From an uncultured Chloroflexia bacterium (GTDB lineage Bacteria; Chloroflexota; Anaerolineae; Anaerolineales; Anaerolineaceae): 32,000 nucleotides of DNA. The stretch lies in the NCBI GenBank assembly GCA_963704755.1, contig OY969938.1, forward strand, positions 3,720,001 to 3,752,000. The letters are read 5' to 3'. Position numbers and translations under genes: made by a program. Of this stretch, positions 7,266-31,939 are shown piece by piece (position 1 is the first letter of the stretch; each line of letters opens with the position of its first letter). The notes under the pieces were generated by a model. The model saw nothing but the letters and a program-made list of their open reading frames with translations, was not told where the DNA came from and did no database searches.

Positions 7266-7316
7266 GGGTGTTTATGGTTTTTCGTGTGCGAAGCACACGA
7301 AAAACCATAAACACCC
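7266..7316. repeat. Hairpin palindrome: 24-bp perfect stem, GAA triloop, apex GCGAAGC
   Basis: GGGTGTTTATGGTTTTTCGTGTGC, then GAA, then GCACACGAAAAACCATAAACACCC. The arms are exact reverse complements; checked base by base. Confidence 0.95.
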
Positions 7317-11778: not shown

Positions 11779-11843
11779 GAATTAAGATGTTCTATATTTT
11801 TTCGTGTGATTCATACGCAAAAAAATATAGAACATCTTAATTC
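11779..11843. repeat. Hairpin palindrome (24-bp stem, 17-nt partly paired loop) between convergent genes
   Basis: GAATTAAGATGTTCTATATTTTTT (11779-11802) pairs with AAAAAATATAGAACATCTTAATTC (11820-11843). It starts 4 nt after the + gene stop, and its right arm contains the stop of the minus-strand ygbA-like gene. Confidence 0.85.
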
Positions 11844-15864: not shown

Positions 15865-15920
15865 CCCCGAATTAAAAGTGTTTGTGGGGACGAAGTCCCC
15901 ACAAACACTTTAATTCGGGG
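15865..15920. repeat. Hairpin palindrome: 26-bp stem with one bulged A, GAA triloop
   Basis: CCCCGAATTAAAAGTGTTTGTGGGGAC, then GAA, then GTCCCCACAAACACTTTAATTCGGGG. Confidence 0.9.
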
Positions 15921-18222: not shown

Positions 18223-18268
18223 GCGGGTTTTTTATTTGGGCGATAAACCGCCCAAATAAAAAACCCGC
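18223..18268. repeat. Hairpin palindrome (20-bp perfect stem, 6-nt loop) between convergent genes
   Basis: GCGGGTTTTTTATTTGGGCG, then ATAAAC, then CGCCCAAATAAAAAACCCGC. It lies 10 nt after the + gene stop and 9 nt after the minus gene stop. Confidence 0.92.
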
Positions 18269-19503: not shown

Positions 19504-19555
19504 GGTGCTATTTTTATTATTTTGCATGCATAGCTTGCAAAATAATAAAAACACC
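19504..19555. repeat. Hairpin: 16-bp perfect AT-rich stem plus 4 outer bp with a 3-nt bulge, 9-nt loop
   Basis: TTTTTATTATTTTGCA (19511-19526) pairs with TGCAAAATAATAAAAA (19536-19551). The outer pairs are GGTG/CACC. Confidence 0.8.
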
Positions 19556-19656: not shown

Positions 19657-19705
19657 TTATGAGGAGTTTGGGAACGGGCGTAGCCCGGTCCCAAACTCCT
19701 CATAA
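19657..19705. repeat. Hairpin palindrome: 22 of 23 bp paired, GTA triloop (apex GCGTAGC)
   Basis: TTATGAGGAGTTTGGGAACGGGC, then GTA, then GCCCGGTCCCAAACTCCTCATAA. There is one A/G mismatch. Confidence 0.88.
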
Positions 19706-20966: not shown

Positions 20967-21123
20967 CCTTAACTTCCTGGTGTTCAATCGATCCTGTTGC
21001 CAGGAAATATGGTTCCCCGGCGGATGCCCCCAGTCGTTTGTCGAGACAAATGTTCCCACGATCTGATCTTATTTTACCGGAGGAATCGGCATTTTTGGAC
21101 AGTCAATTTCTTGGTTTACGGTT

Positions 21124-21178
21124 CCCAAATTTGAGGTATTTGCGAGGGCGAAGCCCTCGCAAATACCTCAAATTTGGG
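21124..21178. repeat. Hairpin palindrome: 26-bp perfect stem, GAA triloop, apex GCGAAGC
   Basis: CCCAAATTTGAGGTATTTGCGAGGGC, then GAA, then GCCCTCGCAAATACCTCAAATTTGGG. Exact; checked base by base. It lies between divergent gene starts. Confidence 0.95.
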
Positions 21179-21253
21179 TTTCTATTCATCAGGTTGGGCA
21201 GTTTCCCCTTCTCAATGCAAGCGATTATAATCAGCGCGGGAGAGAATACGCGC

Positions 21254-22156
21254 ATGGAAAATGAAACAGTTCACCTGAAACCGGGTTACTGGCAGGCCTG
21301 GCTGCTGGCTTCACGGCCGAAAACGCTGCCGGCTGCGGCGGCGCCGGTAATTATTGGGATAGGATTGGCCGTGGGAGAAGGGGTGTTCCGTTTTGGCCCG
21401 GCGCTGGCCGCGCTGGCGGTGGCGTTATTGCTGCAAATCGGGGCCAATGTTTCCAACGATTATTTCGATTATCAGAAAGGCGCGGACACCGATCAGCGCC
21501 TGGGGCCAACCCGGGTGACCCAGGCCGGGCTGCTGCCGCTCAGGCATGTGGTGGCCGGCATGCTGGTGGTGTTTGGCCTGGCCGGCTTGATCGGTATCTA
21601 TCTGATCGTGGAAGCCGGTTGGCCGGCGGCCCTGATCGGCGGTCTGGCTATTCTCTCGGCGCTGGCCTATACCGGCGGGCCTTATCCGCTGGGCTATCAT
21701 GGCCTGGGGGAATTGTTTGTCTTTCTATTCTTTGGCCTGGCGGCTGTGGCCGGGACGTATTTCGTCCAGGCGCTGTCGTTCAGCCCGGCCGCGCTGTGGC
21801 TGTCGCTGCCGGCCGGCTTGATCGCCGACGGTATTCTGACGGTCAACAACCTGCGCGACCTGGAGACCGACCGGATCTCGGGCAAGCACACCCTGGCTGT
21901 GCGCATGGGGGAGCGCGGCGCGGTGATCGAGTACTGGACCTGGTTGGTACTGGCTTACCTGTGCGTGGCCGGCGCCGTGCTGACCCGGGCAGTTACCCTC
22001 TGGGCCCTGTTGAGCTGGCTTTCTATCCCCATGGCGGTCAGCCTGGCCCGCCGGGTGGCGACTATCCGCGGAAGGAAAATGAACGCCCTGCTGGCCCAAA
22101 CTGGCCAGTTGGAGCTGGTCTTTGCGCTGCTGCTGGCGCTGGGGTTGGTGATATAG
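21254..22156 (+). CDS. menA: 1,4-dihydroxy-2-naphthoate polyprenyltransferase (UbiA superfamily)
   Basis: WQAWLLASRPKTLPAAAAPVIIGIGLA and NDYFDYQKGADT...RLGPTR are MenA-type motifs, and the protein is polytopic. The ORF-track start 21038 would translate through the 21124-21178 palindrome. ATG 21254 has a GGGAGAG SD about 10 nt upstream. Confidence 0.8.
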   Translation: MENETVHLKPGYWQAWLLASRPKTLPAAAAPVIIGIGLAVGEGVFRFGPALAALAVALLLQIGANVSNDYFDYQKGADTDQRLGPTRVTQAGLLPLRHVVAGMLVVFGLAGLIGIYLIVEAGWPAALIGGLAILSALAYTGGPYPLGYHGLGELFVFLFFGLAAVAGTYFVQALSFSPAALWLSLPAGLIADGILTVNNLRDLETDRISGKHTLAVRMGERGAVIEYWTWLVLAYLCVAGAVLTRAVTLWALLSWLSIPMAVSLARRVATIRGRKMNALLAQTGQLELVFALLLALGLVI

Positions 22157-22189
22157 GGGAGATTAGAGAATAGTGGATGAGTAAATAGA

Positions 22190-22254
22190 CACCGAGGCAA
22201 CGAGGGGGGCGGCTGTAGAAAAAGCACCGGGGCAACGAGTGGAGGCGGCTGTAG
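22190..22254 (+). repeat. Two copies of a ~29-nt direct repeat
   Basis: CACCGAGGCAACGAGGGGGGCGGCTGTAG (22190-22218) and CACCGGGGCAACGAGTGGAGGCGGCTGTAG (22225-22254). Confidence 0.8.
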
Positions 22255-22332: not shown

Positions 22333-22451
22333 TTAGCGGTTGGCAATTGGCTGTTAGCTTTTAGCGATTAGCTGTTAGCTTTTAGCGATTAGCTGTTCGC
22401 TTTTAGCAATTGGCTGTTAGCTTTTAGCGATTAGCTGTTGGCTTTTAGCGT
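22333..22451 (+). repeat. Tandem heptamer repeat TTAGCNN (~17 units) with a 21-nt super-period
   Basis: The 21-nt units are TTAGCGATTAGCTGTTAGCTT / TTAGCGATTAGCTGTTCGCTT / TTAGCAATTGGCTGTTAGCTT / TTAGCGATTAGCTGTTGGCTT. They are contiguous, with no spacers. Confidence 0.9.
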
Positions 22452-22508
22452 TCATACAATCCCCAGATTGGCCGGAAACACTATATCGGTAGCTGAATGT
22501 ACTTTTTT

Positions 22509-22630
22509 GTCATTGCGAACCCTGGCTGCTTTTGCCAGGGCGTGGCAATCTCAACGCTGGCTATTGCAACAGCCTGCGCGCGTTGAGATTGCATACTGCG
22601 CATCAGCGAAATGTGCCTCCTCGCAATGGC
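22509..22630 (+). repeat. Structured repeat element, copy A (termini GTCATTGCGA...TCGCAATGGC)
   Basis: The terminal 10-mers are complementary at 9 of 10 positions. Internal hairpins are CCCTGGC/GCCAGGG (22520-22540) and GCAATCTCAACGC (22545-22557) with GCGTTGAGATTGC (22580-22592). Confidence 0.85.
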
Positions 22631-22760: not shown

Positions 22761-22917
22761 GATTGCGATAGCCAAACGGGATGGTGGGTTACGGGTAAGG
22801 CTTGGGTTGTTTTGTTGCTAAACATTCCCTTGGCGTTCTATAAGAGCCCATCACCCACCCAACACGTATGTTGTAGCTGGCTTGAGAATTGGCTTCGGTA
22901 GCACAATCCCGCTTAAT

Positions 22918-22995
22918 GTCATTGCGAGCCCTGGCTGCTTTTGCCAGGGCGTGGCAATCTCAACGCTGGCTATTGCAACAGCCTGGGCGCATTGA
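22918..22995 (+). repeat. Structured repeat element, copy B (5' part only)
   Basis: 22918-22985 matches 22509-22576 at 67 of 68 positions. The 3' half of copy A is missing or diverged. Confidence 0.88.
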
Positions 22996-23251: not shown

Positions 23252-25798
23252 TTAGCTGCGCAATTTGGCTCCCAGCACCTGGTCCAGGCGACGGACGATC
23301 TTCTGGCGGATCTGGGTGGCCTCCTGAGTGGAGAGGGTGTGATCGCTGGCCTGGTATGTCAGGCTGTAGGCCAGGCTCTTTTTCCCGGCGCCGATCTGCT
23401 CGCCGCGGAAAATGTCGAACAGGCGCACGGCCGTCAGCGCCCGCCCGCCGGCCTGGCGGATGATCGCTTCCACGTCCGCGGCCGGGAGGGTTTCGGGAAC
23501 CACCACGGCGATATCTTCCAGGGTGGGCGGGAAGGTCGGCACCGCGCTGGTCTCGTAACGCCGGGCGGACAGGGCCTGGATGGCGGCCAGGTCGAACTCA
23601 CCGGCCAGGACAGGTGGGTTGAGAAAGCTGTAGCTCTCCTTGACCTGGGGGTGCAGCTCGCCGAAATAGCCCAGGGTGACTTCGCCAACACTGACCCGCG
23701 CGCATTTGCCCGGATGGAAGGCCGGGTGGTCGCCCGGGGTAAAAGTCGCATCCGGAATGTGGACGACTTGCAGCAGCTCCTCGACAATGCCCTTGAGATC
23801 GAAGTAATCCAGGGACGCGCTCTGGGAGGTATCCCAGGCCGGCGGCCGGCGCAGGCCGGTCACGGCCATGGCCACGAATTGGCGTTCTTCCGGTAAAGGT
23901 TCACCCTGGCGGGGCCAGAAGACCGGACCGATCTCGAACAGGGCCAGGCGATCGCGCAGGCGGACGTTCTTTTCGAGCAGGTCCAGGACAGAAGCCAGCA
24001 GGCTGCGGCGCATGGCCGCCCGCTCGGGGGTCAGCGGGTTTTTGATCCAGATGTATTCCCGCGCCGGAGCCTCGCCGGCGGCCGCATCCAGGCGCGCTTC
24101 GCGTTCGGGTGTGGTCAGGCGGTAATTGACCACTTCCTGCAAACCCAGGCGGACCAATACATCGCGCACGCGGTTTTCGGTATCCAGCACGGGGTTGCTG
24201 TGCACCTGAGGCAGTTCGTCGGGCATACGCCGGGCAGGGATCTTCGCATAGCCGTAAATCCGGGCGACTTCCTCCAACAGGTCGGCCTTGCCGACCACGC
24301 CCTCGCCGATGTCCAGGCGATGCGGCGGAGTCTTGGCCAACACTGTGTCACCTTCCACCCGGCAGGTGAATTCCAGGCGGGTGAGAATGGCAGCGATTTC
24401 GGCAGCGCTCAATTCGATGCCCAGGAGGCGGCGGACATCCGCCGGGGTCAATTCCACTTCGGGATCCTGCTGGGGTAGTGGATATTCATCCACCAGGCCG
24501 GTATAGACCTGGCCGCCGCTCCATTCGGCCATGCGGCTGAGGCACATCTGCACCCCTTCCACCGCCAGGGCCGGGTGGACGCCGCGCGAGAAACGGTAGC
24601 CTGCCTCGGAGGCCAGGTGCTGGGTGAGGGTGGTGCGGCGCACGTTGATGAAATTCCAGCTTGCGCCTTCCAGCAGGACGTTGGTGGTGGTGTCGCTGAC
24701 CTCGGATTCCTGCCCGCCCATGACGCCGGCCAGGGAAAGCGGCCCGGCGGTATCGCAGACCAGGATGGTGGTATCGTCTAGCGTACGTTCAACGTCGTCC
24801 AGGGTGGTCAGCTTTTCGCCGGGTTCGGCGGTGCGGGTGATGATGGTGGGCGGGTTGCCGCCCGCACGGCGCACAAGCACGTCGTAATCGAAGGCGTGCA
24901 GGGGCTCGCCGATCTCGAGCATGACGTAATTGGTGGCGTCCACAATGGCGTTGATCGGGCGCATACCGGCCAGGCGCAGGCGGCGCTGCACCCAGTAGGG
25001 GCTGGGGCGTTTCTGCGCGCCGGAGATCAAGCCGAGCACGAAACGCGGGTTCAGTTTGGGGTCCCCGATGCGGATACCGGCTTTGCCGTCGATAGAAGGC
25101 CCACCCTGAGGCAGGTGCGGCTGGGGGCGGTGCAGGGGCTTGCCGGTCAGGGCAGCCAACTCGCGGGCGACTCCCAGGATGGAGGCGTCGCGAATCATAT
25201 TGGGCAGGATGGCGACCTCGAAGACGGCGTCGCCCATGTATTCAGAAAGCGGCATGCCGGTGGGGGCGTCCGCGTCCAGGAGGATGATGCCTTCGTGCTC
25301 TTCGGAGACGCCCAGTTCCTTTTCCGAGCAGACCATGGAAAAGGATTCGACTCCGCGGATCTTGGTACGCTTGAGGGTGGTCAGCACCTGGCCGGGTTGG
25401 TGACCGTCGTACAGGCGGGCGCCTTCGCGGGCGTAGGCCACTTTGATCGGCTGCTGAAGCGGGCCGATGCCCCGGTATTCGAGCAGGTTAGGCGCCCCGG
25501 TCAGCACGGTGATCTCGCCGGTGCCGTCCTGCAGGCGGCAAAGCACCAGCCGGTCGGCGTTGGGGTGCGGGCTGACCTCGTCGATCTGGGCCACGACGAA
25601 TTTATCCGGGTCCCAGCTCAGGCCGCTCACCTTGAACTCGTGCGGCTGATTGGGGTCAAACCCGGCGTAGGGGTCGGGCAAACCGACCAGGCGGATTTCT
25701 TCTACCTCCAGCCCGGCCATGGTCAGCATACTGGCCAGGTCGAGCAGGGGCAGGTCAATGTCGATGTAATCTTTTAACCAGGAAAGGGGAAGGTCCAT
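23252..25798 (-). CDS. pheT: Phenylalanine--tRNA ligase beta subunit
   Basis: 848-aa ORF with a typical PheT N-terminus (MDLPLSWLKDYIDI). The tRNA-binding, B3/4, B5 and C-terminal FDX-ACB-like regions are recognisable by eye. A GGAG SD is present, and pheS lies upstream. Confidence 0.93.
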   Translation of the reverse strand: MDLPLSWLKDYIDIDLPLLDLASMLTMAGLEVEEIRLVGLPDPYAGFDPNQPHEFKVSGLSWDPDKFVVAQIDEVSPHPNADRLVLCRLQDGTGEITVLTGAPNLLEYRGIGPLQQPIKVAYAREGARLYDGHQPGQVLTTLKRTKIRGVESFSMVCSEKELGVSEEHEGIILLDADAPTGMPLSEYMGDAVFEVAILPNMIRDASILGVARELAALTGKPLHRPQPHLPQGGPSIDGKAGIRIGDPKLNPRFVLGLISGAQKRPSPYWVQRRLRLAGMRPINAIVDATNYVMLEIGEPLHAFDYDVLVRRAGGNPPTIITRTAEPGEKLTTLDDVERTLDDTTILVCDTAGPLSLAGVMGGQESEVSDTTTNVLLEGASWNFINVRRTTLTQHLASEAGYRFSRGVHPALAVEGVQMCLSRMAEWSGGQVYTGLVDEYPLPQQDPEVELTPADVRRLLGIELSAAEIAAILTRLEFTCRVEGDTVLAKTPPHRLDIGEGVVGKADLLEEVARIYGYAKIPARRMPDELPQVHSNPVLDTENRVRDVLVRLGLQEVVNYRLTTPEREARLDAAAGEAPAREYIWIKNPLTPERAAMRRSLLASVLDLLEKNVRLRDRLALFEIGPVFWPRQGEPLPEERQFVAMAVTGLRRPPAWDTSQSASLDYFDLKGIVEELLQVVHIPDATFTPGDHPAFHPGKCARVSVGEVTLGYFGELHPQVKESYSFLNPPVLAGEFDLAAIQALSARRYETSAVPTFPPTLEDIAVVVPETLPAADVEAIIRQAGGRALTAVRLFDIFRGEQIGAGKKSLAYSLTYQASDHTLSTQEATQIRQKIVRRLDQVLGAKLRS

Positions 25799-25852
25799 GG
25801 GTTTCTCCGTAAAGCGTAATGAATAGATAAATAGAGAAAAGAGAATAGATGA

Positions 25853-26260
25853 TTAGGAAAGAGAGGGCTGTGAGCCGGGTTCTTTTTCTCCCTGGCGGGT
25901 GCGTTTGAGATAGGCAATATAGCCATTGAGCATGCGGATCAACTCGTCCGCGTCACTGACCAGGGCTTCACGCAGCGGATCTGGCAGGTAGCCCAATTCG
26001 GCAGCCAGGATGAGGTGGCTGATGGTTTCGTCGAGGGAACCGCGGGCGATATAACAAAAATGAATATTTTCTTGATAATAATATCGGCCATATCCTTCAG
26101 CGATGTTGGCTGGAATGCTCTGAGAACTGCGCCGGACCTGGCTGGCCAACCCCCACTTTTCTTCTTGTGGCAAACAAGGTAGAACTTCGCGATATACACG
26201 GACCGCGAAATCCTTTGACCGCCGCCAGACATCCAGCTTGCCAAGACCCTCACTGCTCAA
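25853..26260 (-). CDS. Four-helix-bundle protein (23S rRNA intervening-sequence protein family, TIGR02436-like)
   Basis: LDVWRRSKDFAVRVYREV...LASQVRRSSQSIPANIAEGYGRYYYQENIHFCYIARGSLDETISHLILAAELGYL is the family signature. The ORF track starts at GTG 26269, but the AGGAG SD overlaps that GTG. TTG 26260 lies 8 nt downstream of the SD and is my preferred start. Confidence 0.85.
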   Translation of the reverse strand: MSSEGLGKLDVWRRSKDFAVRVYREVLPCLPQEEKWGLASQVRRSSQSIPANIAEGYGRYYYQENIHFCYIARGSLDETISHLILAAELGYLPDPLREALVSDADELIRMLNGYIAYLKRTRQGEKEPGSQPSLS

Positions 26261-26370
26261 TTTATTCACTCCTGCCAGTTGAACTCGATCATTGTCGCTG
26301 CATTCTTCAACAAAACGAAACTTAACCTTATCTCAACTACTCACTACTTTTCTATTCCCTATTCTCCTCC

Positions 26371-27414
26371 TCAGAACTGTTCCAAAAACCGCACATCGTT
26401 GCCCCAGAAGTAGCGGATGTCTTCGATGTGGTATTTCAGCATGGCGATGCGTTCGGGACCCAGGCCGGCGGCGAAGCCGGAGAACTGGGTGGGGTCGTAG
26501 CCGCCGTTTTGCAGCACGATGGGATGGACCATCCCGCAGCCGCCGATCTCCAGCCAGCCGGAGCCTTTGCAGACCGTGCAGCCCTTACCGCCGCAGATGA
26601 AGCACTCCATATCCACCTCGGCGCTCGGTTCGGTGAAGGGGAAGTAGGACGGGCGGAAGCGGGTGCGCACCTGGTCGCCGAACAGGCGCCGGGCAACGCC
26701 CTCGATGACGCCTTTCAGATCACCCAGGGTGATGTTGCGGCCCACGGCCAACAGCTCAACCTGGTTGAACTGCATCTCGTGGCTGGCGTTGGTCTGCTCG
26801 TAGCGGTATACCATCCCCGGCAGGATCACCCGCACCGGGTTGGGCGCATAGGCGCGCATGGCATGGATCTGGCCGGGCGAGGTATGCGTGCGCAGGATCG
26901 TGCCCGGCACGGTGGTGTGCAGGGTGTCCCACATGTCGCGGGCCGGGTGATGGGCCGGGATGTTGAGCAGCTCGAAATTGATCTCCTCGGTCTCGACTTC
27001 CGGCGAGCGGTAGATTTGAAAGCCCATCTCGACGAAGGCCTGGCAAATTTCGTTGAGGGCCTGGGTGGCCGGGTGCATCCGGCCCAATGGCAGCGGTCGG
27101 CCCGGCAGGGTCACATCCAGGCGCTCGTTAGCCAGTTTGCGCTGCAGCAAATCGGCCCGCAGAATTTTCTCGCGCCCCGCCAGGGCAGCTTCCAGGGCCA
27201 GCTTGACCTGGTTGGCGCTTTGGCCGACCTGCTGGCGCTGTTCCTTGGGGATCTGGCCCATGCGCGAGAAGACCTGCATGACCGGGGCGCTGCGTCCCAG
27301 GTAGCTGCTGCGCCAGGCTTGCAGCGCATCCTCGTCCTGGACGGCTTGCAGCGCCTCCAGGCCGGCAGCCTGGAGCTGCTCCAGTTCGGAAAGTACGTTG
27401 ATATCTTCAGTCAT
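26371..27414 (-). CDS. pheS: Phenylalanine--tRNA ligase alpha subunit
   Basis: Class II aaRS motifs are present (HPARDMWDT, FRPSYFPFTEPSAEVD, GCGMVHP). The ORF track extends to 27513, through the T-box terminator. ATG 27414 has a GGAGGAAGGA SD immediately upstream. Confidence 0.93.
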   Translation of the reverse strand: MTEDINVLSELEQLQAAGLEALQAVQDEDALQAWRSSYLGRSAPVMQVFSRMGQIPKEQRQQVGQSANQVKLALEAALAGREKILRADLLQRKLANERLDVTLPGRPLPLGRMHPATQALNEICQAFVEMGFQIYRSPEVETEEINFELLNIPAHHPARDMWDTLHTTVPGTILRTHTSPGQIHAMRAYAPNPVRVILPGMVYRYEQTNASHEMQFNQVELLAVGRNITLGDLKGVIEGVARRLFGDQVRTRFRPSYFPFTEPSAEVDMECFICGGKGCTVCKGSGWLEIGGCGMVHPIVLQNGGYDPTQFSGFAAGLGPERIAMLKYHIEDIRYFWGNDVRFLEQF

Positions 27415-27725
27415 TCCTTCCTCCAAAAATAAAAAATCCCGTCCCCACACAAAGGGACGGGACAATTCCCGCGGTACCACCCTGCTTGGCTGCCGAAAGG
27501 GCAGCCCACTCAATCCAACGGCCGGTGAAGGCGATTGGTAGGCCGGTTAACGCTGGCCACGCAACTCGGACTACTGGCCTGTACAGGCATTCCCCCGAGC
27601 GGCTCGAGAGGGAACTTCAACCGGTGTCCATCGTGCGGGGGTCTCAGTCTGTGCCCCCGGCTTCCCTGGCGGTTTCAGCCGGCTTACTTTCCTCCGTCAT
27701 TGCCTTTAAAGCATATGCAGATGCC
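27415..27725 (-). promoter_or_regulatory. T-box riboswitch leader with a Phe (UUC) specifier, controlling pheST
   Basis: On the minus strand the T-box sequence is AGGGTGGTACCGCGGGAA (about 27482-27466). It is followed by the terminator GTCCCGTCCC-tttgtgt-GGGGACGGGA-TTTTTTATTTT (27463-27425). The stem I region contains GGAGGAAAGTAAG, and the specifier-loop-like context is GAAG-UUC-C (UUC at 27614-27612). An F-box-like CGTTA is present. Confidence 0.85.
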
Positions 27726-27728
27726 TCT

Positions 27729-27757
27729 TATTATCCTTAATTCGGGAGGGATGTCAA
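27729..27757 (-). promoter_or_regulatory. Promoter of the pheST T-box leader
   Basis: The minus strand reads TTGACA (27757-27752), a 17-nt spacer, then ATAATA (27734-27729). Confidence 0.6.
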
Positions 27758-27848
27758 GGGAAGAAGGTATCAAGGAAGTGTTGCAGTGATACGGTGATTC
27801 GGTGTTTCGGTTGTTGGTCGGTCGATTGGAAAAAAGTTTCCTTTCCTT

Positions 27849-28128
27849 TTCACCCCCAAAATCCGCACTTAGGATTTTTGGGGTGAAATCTAGCCCTTCC
27901 CTCCAAATCGGTTTTTGATTTGGGGGGAAGCGGGGAAGGGGGGCAGAGAGCGCCGGCCATAAGTGGCCATCCGGCAGCAAAGCTCCCCTTCCCCTGCTCT
28001 GGGGGAAGGGGCCGGGGGATGAGGGTAGGGCGCCGGTATAACCGGCCCATGGACTGGCAAATCGGCGCCTTTTGCCCCTACCTAACCTCCCCCAAAATCC
28101 AAAACCGGGATTTTAGGGGAACTATATT
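27849..28128. repeat. Cluster of C-run/G-run hairpins, including two related CCCCAAAATCC...GGATTTTNGGGG hairpins
   Basis: The hairpins are:
- TTCACCCCCAAAATCC/GGATTTTTGGGGTGAA (27849-27887)
- CTTCCCTCCAAATC/GATTTGGGGGGAAG (27896-27930)
- CCCCTTCCCC/GGGGAAGGGG (27985-28011)
- GCCGGT/ACCGGC (28032-28046)
- TCCCCCAAAATCC/GGATTTTAGGGGA (28089-28120). Confidence 0.8.
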
Positions 28129-28247
28129 CCCTTTCAGTCGTCTTAAATGCAAATCGTATCCCCGGCTTGAATCCACCTCATTAAAGAGGTATGCTTTCCT
28201 TGGAGTTTACGAAATCTTTGTAACTACCCGGCTAAGCTGGAGTAACA

Positions 28248-28306
28248 GGGTGTTTTTTGGATGTTTTCTGCGTGCTTTGCACGCAGAAAACATCCAAAAA
28301 ACACCC
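28248..28306. repeat. Hairpin palindrome: 28-bp perfect stem, TTT loop
   Basis: GGGTGTTTTTTGGATGTTTTCTGCGTGC, then TTT, then GCACGCAGAAAACATCCAAAAAACACCC. Exact; checked base by base. It ends 69 nt upstream of the lipoprotein ATG. Confidence 0.95.
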
Positions 28307-28374
28307 ACCTCCTGAACTGGCTAGAGCAGTTTCAAAACTTTTTAATCATCTACTAAAAAGTAGAAGGAGAACCG

Positions 28375-29583
28375 ATGCGAAAAGCATTATTTATCCCGGC
28401 CTGCCTTATGATATTAGTATCGACGGCTTGCGTCCTCCCAGCCCCTGCACCGTCGGTAACTCCCACGCCGACCGCCCTGGTCATCCCGACTACGGTAGTT
28501 CCACCGACTGCAACCGTCCCCGCGGTGATCACCTCGACGCCTGAGCCGGTTACCCCGACCCCGGTTTTACCCACCTTTACTGCCACAATCATCCCCCAGG
28601 CGACCAACACAGCGGCCGTTGCCACCAGCACCCCAGTGCCCGCGGGTAGCCTGACCCCATTGGACGTGGATGCCTCCAAATACATCGATGATCGCAGCGG
28701 TGTTTCGATTTTAGCGTCGCTGTTCAATGCGGTTAACCGCAAAGAGTACCTGCGGGCGTATTCGTACTGGAGCGCGGACAGCAATGTGGTCCAGACCCAC
28801 ACTTACGCTCAGTTCGCCGCCGGTTACGCCCAGACCCAGTCGGTGCAGGCCCAGATTGGCCCGATCACCGGTGACGCCGGCGCGGGCAACTTCTACTTCA
28901 ACGTCCCGGTGGCCCTGACCGCCACGACGACCACTAACACCACCCAGTATTTTGTGGGCTGCTACACCCTGCACCAGGTCAACCCGGGCAATTTCGGCGG
29001 GAACAATTTTGTCCCGATCCAGATTCAAAAAGGGAATGTCTTGATCGCCAACAGCCCCTCAGATTTTCCCTCGATGATTGCGAATGTTTGCTCCAGCCAG
29101 AGCGGCAGCGGTGTTTCACCCACGACCACGCCGGCTCCGGATGATATCAGCAGCGGTCGTTTTCTGGATGACCGCAGCGATGGCATCCAGGTGGTGCGTT
29201 CGTTCTACAACGCCATCAACCGGCACGAATACTCGCGAGCCTATTACTACTGGGAACCGGCCGCCGCGACCACAAACCTGCCGCCTTTCGACCAGTTCCA
29301 GCAGGGGTACCAGACCACCCAATCGGTCGATTTGACCGTGGGCACCATGACCAGCGACGCGGGCGCCGGGCAGTTGTATTATTCTGTGCCGGTGACCCTG
29401 GTCTCGCACCTGGATAATAACCAGACCGCGACCTACGTGGGCTGTTACGTGATGCACCTGGCCCAGCCGGCCATCCAGGCCACCCCGCCGTTCCAGCCGA
29501 TGGGTATCCGCAGCGCGAAAATCCAGCAGGTGGATAATGGCAGCGATACCAGTGCTCTTATGAACACCATCTGCCAGCAGTAG
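28375..29583 (+). CDS. Lipoprotein with Pro/Thr-rich linker and two tandem copies of an uncharacterised ~130-aa domain
   Basis: 402-aa ORF with a signal peptide and lipobox (LMILVSTAC) and a GGAGAA SD. The internal duplication shows as YIDDRSGVSILASLFNAVNRKEYLRAYSYW / FLDDRSDGIQVVRSFYNAINRHEYSRAYYYW, GYAQTQSV..DAGAGNFYFNVPVAL / GYQTTQSV..DAGAGQLYYSVPVTL, and YFVGCYTLH / TYVGCYVMH. Confidence 0.85.
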   Translation: MRKALFIPACLMILVSTACVLPAPAPSVTPTPTALVIPTTVVPPTATVPAVITSTPEPVTPTPVLPTFTATIIPQATNTAAVATSTPVPAGSLTPLDVDASKYIDDRSGVSILASLFNAVNRKEYLRAYSYWSADSNVVQTHTYAQFAAGYAQTQSVQAQIGPITGDAGAGNFYFNVPVALTATTTTNTTQYFVGCYTLHQVNPGNFGGNNFVPIQIQKGNVLIANSPSDFPSMIANVCSSQSGSGVSPTTTPAPDDISSGRFLDDRSDGIQVVRSFYNAINRHEYSRAYYYWEPAAATTNLPPFDQFQQGYQTTQSVDLTVGTMTSDAGAGQLYYSVPVTLVSHLDNNQTATYVGCYVMHLAQPAIQATPPFQPMGIRSAKIQQVDNGSDTSALMNTICQQ

Positions 29584-31827: not shown

Positions 31828-31842
31828 TTTAAAAAATATATA

Positions 31843-31891
31843 AAAGGGTATTGTTTTTTGGGTGCGAAGCACCAAAAAAACAATACCCTTT
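31843..31891. repeat. Hairpin palindrome: 22 of 23 bp paired, GAA triloop, apex GCGAAGC
   Basis: AAAGGGTATTGTTTTTTGGGTGC, then GAA, then GCACCAAAAAAACAATACCCTTT. It starts 16 nt after the rhomboid stop. Confidence 0.9.
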
Positions 31892-31939
31892 ATGTTATTT
31901 ATGGCCCAAGCCCGTAAGGGGTTTTCTGAGAGGTTTGAT

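Follow-up and report, generated by a model that had tools for sequence, protein, structure and literature searches.

The intervening sequences (IVSs) of 23S ribosomal RNA (rRNA) genes, as found in Leptospira, Coxiella burnetii and Azospirillum lipoferum (plasmid p2), carry a gene for a protein of family PF05635 in a loop, are closed by complementary terminal arms, occur sporadically among relatives and are excised by RNase III. In Coxiella, RNase III cuts a terminal stem of 28 bp, and the open reading frame (ORF) is preceded by GACAGAT heptamers whose copy number varies among strains (PMC4990558). The origin, mobility and purpose of rRNA IVSs, together with their conserved ORF, have been an open question since the early 1990s. 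Here we describe a 572-nt segment of similar design that lies between pheS and pheT, the genes for the alpha and beta chains of phenylalanyl-tRNA synthetase, in an uncultured Chloroflexia bacterium of the family Anaerolineaceae (assembly GCA_963704755.1, contig OY969938.1, forward-strand positions 3,720,001 to 3,752,000). This stretch of 32,000 nt is referred to as the window, with its first nucleotide as position 1, and the single gene of the segment as the IVP gene, after the IVS protein family.

The rRNA IVSs and their ORF family are already known, as are the relation of that family to Avd of diversity-generating retroelements (DGRs), the heptamer arrays of Coxiella, Xanthomonas and cyanobacteria, and the association of the family with CRISPR. 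The GGGAATC arrays of Xanthomonas (Rehm et al. 2015) and the short tandemly repeated repetitive (STRR) heptamers of cyanobacteria resemble the arms of the segment described here in having a 7-nt unit, in lying a few nucleotides past the stop of the upstream gene, often as convergent pairs, and in varying in length and sequence between close relatives; unlike those arms, they have been interpreted as G-quadruplex formers, and most have no ORF between them. Our literature search, whose coverage was incomplete, returned no paper joining these observations as one element class or describing IVS-type cassettes at protein-operon junctions.

The pheS-pheT insert and its gene

We consider it rather probable that the segment is an IVS-type cassette inserted exactly between the pheS stop and the pheT start, whose arms would pair into a stem in the messenger RNA (mRNA) and offer a target for RNase III. 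A sequence-only reading of the window had noted that pheS and pheT are split by 572 nt, and the gap is exactly 25799-26370 (minus strand, which carries every relevant gene in the order T-box leader, pheS, insert, pheT), with the pheS TGA stop (26371-26373) as its left boundary and the pheT ATG as its right one. The insert, judged by eye in that reading to be more A/T-rich than its flanks, has a computed guanine-plus-cytosine (GC) content of 0.486 (0.525 in the IVP ORF, 0.33 and 0.41 in the two spacers) against 0.63-0.65 in the flanking genes (0.633 in pheS, 0.650 in pheT). It consists of a 5' arm, a spacer, the IVP gene, a 3' arm and, in its right end, a Shine-Dalgarno sequence for pheT (GGAG at 25805-25808, minus strand), the order there being CGCTTTAC GGAG AAACCC ATG. 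The region upstream of pheT is laid out in the same way in relatives, with a T-run, GGAG and then 6-8 nt.

The IVP gene (25853-26260, minus strand) is the only ORF of the insert, starts with TTG and encodes 135 aa that are identical to a database protein (P0001). Its Shine-Dalgarno sequence, GGAG at 26269-26272 (minus strand), lies 8 nt upstream of the TTG at 26258-26260, with 26258-26274 reading CAGGAGTGAATAAATTG, and in one relative (L003; loci from other genomes are cited by such numbers) an ATG aligns with this TTG. An alternative GTG start at 26269 would give 138 aa; this exact product is absent from database records, and the 135-aa TTG-start form is on record.

The proposal that this is an IVS-family four-helix-bundle protein with a relation to Avd holds up well. 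The protein matches PF05635 (23S_rRNA_IVP; E = 2.5e-34, 118.1 bits against a cut-off of 33.8, profile positions 2-106 of 106), TIGR02436 (E = 3.9e-35, 120.4 bits, cut-off 24) and, in terms of sequence similarity only, PDB entry 2GSC, the Xanthomonas protein XCC0516, which is a pentamer of four-helix bundles (E = 2.3e-15, residues 8-111). The motif RxxxSxxxNxxE, conserved in XCC0516 homologues (PMC3936711), is present in the window protein as R-SSQ-S-IPA-N-IA-E, within ...QVRRSSQSIPANIAEGYG... Similarity to the phage DGR protein Avd is remote (phrog_3206, E = 5e-4), and 2GSC has been aligned with bAvd 4DWL in the literature (PMC10053308). Unlike a DGR, the locus has no reverse transcriptase among the larger ORFs of the window (Pfam scans), no search having been made for a template/variable repeat pair, and Avd genes, unlike the cassette, are not described as bracketed by complementary heptamer arrays. 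Among IVP homologues at the pheS-pheT site, nonsynonymous divergence (dN) is 0.16-0.42 with synonymous divergence (dS) saturated, and the one measurable pair has a dN/dS of 0.07; a ratio so far below 1 argues that the IVP protein is maintained by purifying selection. The PF05635-type family is very large (14,819 representatives of 50%-identity clusters at E <=0.001 in a single-sequence search) and carries no annotation beyond 'four helix bundle protein'.

A T-box leader (27450-27709, minus strand; Rfam RF00230, 99.6 bits against a gathering score of 93, E = 5.3e-22, full model 1-219) lies upstream of pheS (26371-27414, minus strand; PF01409 at 9.6e-90, PF02912 at 3.2e-17; TGA checked). The pheS start is the ATG at 27414, where the alignment of relatives begins, and the longer TTG-start ORF called for this gene (to 27513) runs into the T-box leader. 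On the other side of the insert, pheT (23252-25798, minus strand) has five PheT domains (PF17759, PF03483, PF03147, PF03484 and PF01588). Examination of the insert gave no convincing promoter or terminator, and an Rfam scan found no known RNA family and no intron in it. There is also no rRNA match in 25000-28500: the cassette lies between pheS and pheT and not inside 23S rRNA (helix 9, 25 or 45). Because of the T-box leader upstream and the lack of a convincing promoter or terminator within the insert, we read the cassette as part of the pheS-pheT transcript, and pheS, cassette and pheT are predicted to form one T-box-regulated transcript.

Filled and empty junctions in relatives

A pheS-based scan with one genome per species yielded 32 loci, mostly from Anaerolineaceae, and both genes were located in 30 of them; the best PheS identity was 79-81%, to Bellilinea. 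The junction spacing is 0-80 nt in 22/30 loci, in 12 of which the stop and start codons overlap or abut with no spacer (TGATG, TAAATG), in line with the earlier remark that the two genes are normally adjacent. An IVP cassette of 549-670 nt is found in six of the 30 loci (one with pheT beyond the contig end), and other inserts in two. Relatives, then, do not all carry the gene: the cassette is missing from 22/30 loci, among them that of L031, the nearest relative, and that of Bellilinea caldifistulae. On a quick neighbour-joining tree of PheS+PheT, which has no support values, filled and empty sites are interspersed, and L031, sister to the window, is empty. The samples of relatives and of the plasmids discussed below are small and partly redundant (L001/L002; L050/L051; L054/L057/L058). 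Judging from the aligned junctions, the segment is an insertion and not an old operon member.

The two other inserts consist of a CxxC mini-protein plus a DUF4160/DUF2442 pair (L028, 1600-2417) and of 423 nt with a hydrophobic ORF (L029, 5985-6407), and the pheS-pheT junction seems to collect small inserts. A further locus (L025, 6072-6151) has an ORF-less 80-nt hairpin at this junction (-29 kcal/mol, z = -3.7), followed by GGAG. The idea of a cassette remnant is kept for L025 only; the 37-nt spacer of L031 was dropped as a candidate, as it does not fold (z = +0.85).

With respect to cassette turnover, we observe that IVP identity and host identity are uncorrelated (Spearman 0.15, p = 0.38, 36 pairs). 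The PheS proteins of two Longilinea genomes (L010 and L018) are 96% identical at the amino acid level (dN 0.017, dS 0.44), their IVP proteins 57% (dN 0.42, dS saturated), and their arm units are unlike (GTGATGA vs. GGTATTC). The DNA of the two is ~94% identical through the pheS stop codon, identity is gone at the next base, and the junction shows no imported flank. Divergence of the window from the metagenome contigs L001/L002 is 9.4% for pheS, 20% for the 5' spacer and 15.5% for pheT, and yet zero across 437 nt (26227-25791) that span the greater part of the ORF together with the 3' arm and the pheT start; this identical tract indicates a recent exchange. Together, the turnover and exchange data argue that the cassette is a discrete unit that is gained, replaced and exchanged, and not a vertically fixed gene. 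Spread by homologous recombination via the conserved flanking genes is plausible, for pheST as well as for rRNA.

If the gene were an ancient pheST operon member, inherited vertically and precisely lost in many lineages, this would fit the position of all close IVP homologues examined, which lie between pheS and pheT, and the L025 hairpin, which resembles a remnant. Such a history would need repeated deletions, each base-perfect, to leave the 12 empty sites with exactly overlapping or abutting codons. It is also at odds with the uncoupling of IVP and host trees, with hosts of 96% identical PheS carrying cassettes of saturated dS, and with the interspersion of filled and empty sites on the tree. 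We regard it as very unlikely, and the sequence comparisons already contradict it.

Arms and their pairing

The 5' arm of the window cassette (26324-26368, minus strand) begins 3 nt past the pheS stop, is purine-rich and is made of degenerate 7-nt units (GAATAGG GAATAGA AAAGTAG TGAGTAG), with a Watson-Crick core at 26351-26366. The 3' arm (25825-25869, minus strand; core 25834-25849) is pyrimidine-rich and complementary to the 5' arm, overlaps the last IVP codons and stops 26 nt short of the pheT ATG. The GAATAG inverted repeats of the sequence-only reading are indeed in place, as the pairs 25834-25856/26344-26366 (23 nt, 78% complementary) and 25821-25837/26341-26357; GAATAG as such occurs 18 times in the window vs. 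9.5 expected, with 4 of the 18 within the two arms.

It had also been proposed that these repeats form a stem enclosing the ORF. For the window alone, modelling gives a mixed answer as to whether the arms pair beyond chance. The two spacers do not surpass dinucleotide shuffles in duplex energy (z = +0.7), because any purine-rich strand pairs with any pyrimidine-rich strand; this test was replaced by locus-wide complement scans, random-segment controls and comparative tests. The minimum free energy of the whole insert has a z of -1.5. In the folding ensemble, the 597-nt insert RNA forms 41.8 arm-to-arm pairs, compared to 10.8 +/- 10.4 in random 597-nt window segments (1/39 reached 41.8) and to 27.3 on the antisense strand of the insert, and the cognate 3' arm holds five of the seven top-ranking complements to the 5' arm (sense strand, whole 32 kb). 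Since the window flanks do no better than composition-matched shuffles, the argument for the stem rests on the comparative data, and it is there, in the co-variation of the arms across lineages and in ensemble folding, that the proposal stood.

Arrays of short units lie on both sides of the ORF in every filled pheS-pheT locus, and the unit varies by lineage. We observe GAGAATA-like units (window, L001, L003, L034, L037 and L041), GTGAAnC (L015), GTGA(A/T)GA (L010 and L019) and GGTATTC or GAATATC (L018 and L026), i.e., at least four classes of arm sequence, and within each cassette the 3' arm complements its own 5' arm. Scans of the full 2-12 kb of each locus place the best complement of the 5' arm within the ~150-230 nt immediately ahead of the pheT start in 7/9 independent loci, and ensemble folding gives 26-51 arm-to-arm pairs in 10/10 loci. 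A matrix of cognate and non-cognate RNAduplex energies was dominated by length and by cross-pairing within the GAGAATA class, and an ungapped helix score was used instead. Mismatches to the Watson-Crick helix are G-T (G-U in RNA) in 11 cases vs. A-C in 5, a count that is too small to decide and leans to selection on the sense RNA.

IVP similarity tracks arm class only weakly, so that a recognition code between protein and arm finds no support. The provision of stop codons in each of the three frames, considered as a reason for 7-nt units, fits the units that contain TAG or TGA, fails for GGTATTC and GGGAACA, and was dropped as a general reason. In L026 (8190-8385), TCGAATA-type arm units are expanded in frame inside pheT, giving a low-complexity SNIESSNIASP insert, and in two loci (L037 at ~1856 and L041 at ~1849) the leader region upstream of pheS contains another pyrimidine-rich site that complements the 5' arm of the cassette.

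Across the filled loci, the 5' arm starts 1-14 nt past the pheS stop, within reach of the terminating ribosome, and the 3' arm ends 17-48 nt ahead of the pheT ATG, followed by the T-run and the conserved GGAG. Such a layout would also suit a translational device, in which the stem brings the pheS stop beside the pheT ribosome-binding site and restores coupling, and which could also keep the ribosome-binding site of the IVP gene covered until the arm is opened by ribosomes completing pheS. The purine-rich arm lies directly against the IVP start in several relatives, the IVP frame continues through the 3' arm in many (products of 150-174 aa), and the empty sites are translationally coupled (TGATG), all of which would agree with this function. 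The same design is, however, present inside 23S rRNA, where coupling of translation plays no part, and a translational role of the stem is compatible with RNase III processing. We consider a purely translational device an improbable account of the stem.

The same design in other bacteria

On plasmid p2 of Azospirillum lipoferum (L049), an IVP ORF lies inside a 23S rRNA gene (RF02541), flanked by CAGAGGA/CGGATGA heptamers and their complement. In Xanthomonas, the crystallised XCC0516 and its orthologues sit between accB and accC. Repeat #15 in the supplementary table of Rehm et al. (2015) is a GGGAATC array that lies 6 nt past accB and overlaps the XCC0516 start, and no link is drawn there between this array and the IVP protein family; we observe that a complementary 3' array ends at the accC ATG (26/30 pairs, two genomes). 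Cyanobacterial and other plasmids have co-oriented, tightly packed IVP genes in cas10-cmr3, cas6-cas4, conjugation and partition operons, most of them with complementary arrays, e.g., (GGGAACA)n/(TGTTCCC)n, AGGAGTC/GACTCCT and GGGAAAA/TTTTCCC. A lag-7 repeat signal (>=0.68 over 28 nt) is present upstream of 19/28 IVP genes, vs. 2.3% of control segments. On plasmid pANA02 of Anabaena sp. 90 (L055, 838-1200), heptamers (GGTGACA/GGGAACA) fill the entire 363 nt that separate cas6 from the IVP gene, an array far longer than its short 3' partner.

Two homologous plasmid operons of Nostoc (L054, 1133-1552, and L056, 1138-1642), 85-92% identical, carry unrelated IVP cassettes (43% identity) that occupy different neighbouring junctions, the other's site being empty in each, with the insertion point inside the 3-nt spacer directly after the stop codon. 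The Nostoc case shows insertion at new junctions, and is the cleanest natural before/after pair for it. As the relatives show, cassettes of this kind have been gained and lost at junctions between genes in several bacterial phyla. The notion of a mobile IVS-like module, which the sequence-only reading had put forward, is thereby strengthened, given also that a genuine 23S rRNA IVS shares the design and that cassettes are replaced between near-identical hosts.

The range of hosts also bears on the idea that phenylalanyl-tRNA synthetase, or whichever operon hosts the gene (e.g., CRISPR-Cas), has IVP as a functional partner or regulator. The presence of an IVP gene under purifying selection in the pheST transcript would agree with such a role, and earlier surveys scored the family as CRISPR-associated (PMC3936711, PMC10910872). 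The host operons are, however, unrelated (pheST, accBC, cas10-cmr3, cas6-cas4, conjugative-plasmid genes and 23S rRNA), most relatives do without the IVP gene, and no PADLOC defence model matches the IVP protein, so that we give this idea hardly any credence.

A different kind of explanation takes the arms as a DNA-level feature, i.e., as terminal inverted repeats or as recombination sites of hairpin/cruciform type, belonging to a non-autonomous element that resembles a miniature inverted-repeat transposable element (MITE) or attC, with the enzyme encoded elsewhere and the RNA stem a by-product. The discrete boundaries, the reciprocal empty and filled sites and the replacement of cassettes are all expected of such an element. 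Heptamer arrays also occur alone or as ORF-less pairs, as in a solo array in the window (22157-22190) and the L025 hairpin, with 70-75 inverted GGGAATC pairs in Xanthomonas genomes (PMC4692102), and the 11-to-5 mismatch count rests on few mismatches. Against this, arm sequence is not conserved among copies, and ends recognised by a transposase normally are; no target-site duplication is seen at the Nostoc junctions, and no transposase or integrase among the larger ORFs of the window. Almost every cassette has the orientation of its host operon and provides the next gene with a Shine-Dalgarno sequence, which points to constraints at the level of RNA and translation, and the sense strand folds better than the antisense. 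A DNA-level element is in our view unlikely.

Other repeats in the window

Directly after the stop of a UbiA-family ORF (21038-22156), the window has a solo purine-rich array at 22157-22190 (plus strand), GGGAGATTAGAGAATAGTGGATGAGTAAATAGAC, of the same GAGAATAG flavour as the cassette arm; a complementary partner is lacking nearby, as is an IVP gene, and the array may represent either a relic arm or an unconnected repeat. Downstream of pheT, a non-coding stretch (22346-22450) holds ~14 tandem heptamers (GCTGTTA, with a 21-nt super-period), a unit that also flanks IVP genes on plasmids of Calothrix (L042) and Pseudanabaena (L045). A direct repeat of ~70 nt (CAGGCTGTTGCAATAGCCAGCGTTGAGATTGCCACGCCCTGGCAAAAGCAGCCAGGG.TCGCAATGACA, minus-strand reading) is found at ~22505-22575 and 22915-22985, in a 1-kb region without a recognisable gene, and an 8-nt tandem array (GTGATTCG, ~3 copies) lies at 27786-27811, just upstream of the T-box leader. 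The window furthermore has at least 10 perfect or near-perfect intergenic hairpins with arms of 19-32 bp, mostly 3-nt loops and mutually unrelated sequences (28248-28306, 21124-21178, 7266-7316, 15866-15920, 19657-19705, 11779-11843, 31834-31900, 1858-1906, 18223-18268 and 19511-19551); none of these is made of heptamer units or has an obvious relation to the cassette. The sequence-only reading had raised a possible connection between the many hairpins of this genome and the fold of the IVP protein.

Discussion

The reading that we favour sees the cassette as a promoterless, self-contained module, in which a 5' arm of ~7-nt units is followed by a ribosome-binding site of its own, the IVP gene, the complementary 3' arm and a further ribosome-binding site that serves the next gene; it would be transcribed within the T-box-controlled pheS-pheT mRNA. 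The arms would pair in this mRNA into a long stem closing off the IVP frame, as in ORF-bearing 23S rRNA IVSs, and by analogy with these the stem would most probably be a double-stranded RNA substrate for RNase III, an enzyme requiring a duplex of about two turns. Once cut, the transcript would yield separate pheS and pheT messages and set the IVP message free, and the Shine-Dalgarno sequence of the cassette would keep pheT translated after the loss of stop-start coupling. Over evolutionary time, the cassette would act, at cistron junctions and in rRNA helices, as a unit that can move or be replaced.

The likeness to rRNA IVSs extends to the PF05635 protein in the loop, the complementary terminal arms that close the element (26324-26368 and 25825-25869 in the window) and the sporadic occurrence among relatives. 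Tandem heptamers, which the arms of Coxiella and Azospirillum contain, are clear in relatives at the pheS-pheT site (lag-7 match 0.68-0.89) and degenerate in the window itself (0.54). Unlike an rRNA IVS, which is inserted in helix 25 or 45, the cassette lies at the stop/start junction of two protein genes, in a T-box-regulated mRNA, and has a Shine-Dalgarno sequence for the downstream gene; excision by RNase III is established for rRNA IVSs and predicted for the cassette.

Other mobile elements are similar in part. Integron cassettes (attC), MITEs and repetitive extragenic palindromes (REPs) are likewise small promoterless units relying on host transcription, with flanking inverted repeats conserved in structure and variable in sequence and with clean presence or absence at discrete sites. 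The cassette differs from these elements in that its arms flank the ORF on both sides. It differs from integrons in particular in being single and scattered in housekeeping operons, not stacked, with no integrase among the larger ORFs of the window and no attI nearby, and from transposons and MITEs in having arm units that differ between lineages, with no target-site duplication seen (Nostoc) and no transposase in the window. Homing endonuclease genes and inteins share the selfish-looking insertion into conserved essential genes, the sporadic occurrence and the repeated gain at one site; the cassette, in contrast, has no nuclease or splicing domain and lies between reading frames, not within one.

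Several observations weigh against an inserted cassette with an RNase III-processed stem. The RNase III step is carried over from rRNA IVSs by analogy, and the evidence on RNA structure is computational throughout. Within the window, the spacer duplex does not surpass its shuffles, and the 7-nt periodicity is degenerate (lag-7 match 0.54, compared to 0.68-0.89 in relatives at the same site); the arms of L019 (Longilinea arvoryzae KOME-1) are weak, and the 11-to-5 mismatch count leaves room for a constraint at the DNA level. Among the plasmid cassettes there are exceptions to the paired arms, with direct arrays in L045, one arm only in L046 and L059, and none in L061. As to mobility, Pfam scans of the larger ORFs found no transposase, integrase or reverse transcriptase in the 32-kb window, and the empty and filled Nostoc junctions show no target-site duplication. 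Every close IVP homologue examined, including those at extra loci reached via homologue look-ups, lies between pheS and pheT, and homologous recombination, as opposed to active insertion, could also account for the spread to this shared site.

On a wider and more speculative level, which we put forward with little confidence, IVP cassettes might be one widespread, unrecognised class of mobile elements, consisting of an arm pair and a gene for an Avd-like pentamer at stop/start junctions and rRNA helices, of which rRNA IVSs would merely be the first noticed. IVP might then be the element's own mobility or maintenance factor, e.g., by binding the arm duplex, possibly via an RNA intermediate released by RNase III; ORF-less heptamer hairpins (the Xanthomonas GGGAATC pairs, cyanobacterial STRR sequences and ORF-less rRNA IVSs) might be its non-autonomous derivatives, and the CRISPR association hitch-hiking.

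An arm-ORF-arm module at the junctions of essential operons offers comparative material for direct tests of both mobility and RNA processing. IVP genes in cas operons should be checked for arms before they are read as Cas accessory proteins, and heptamer arrays described as quadruplex formers may in part be cassette arms. A tolerated insert that breaks the translational coupling of pheS and pheT would also inform how operons absorb selfish DNA.

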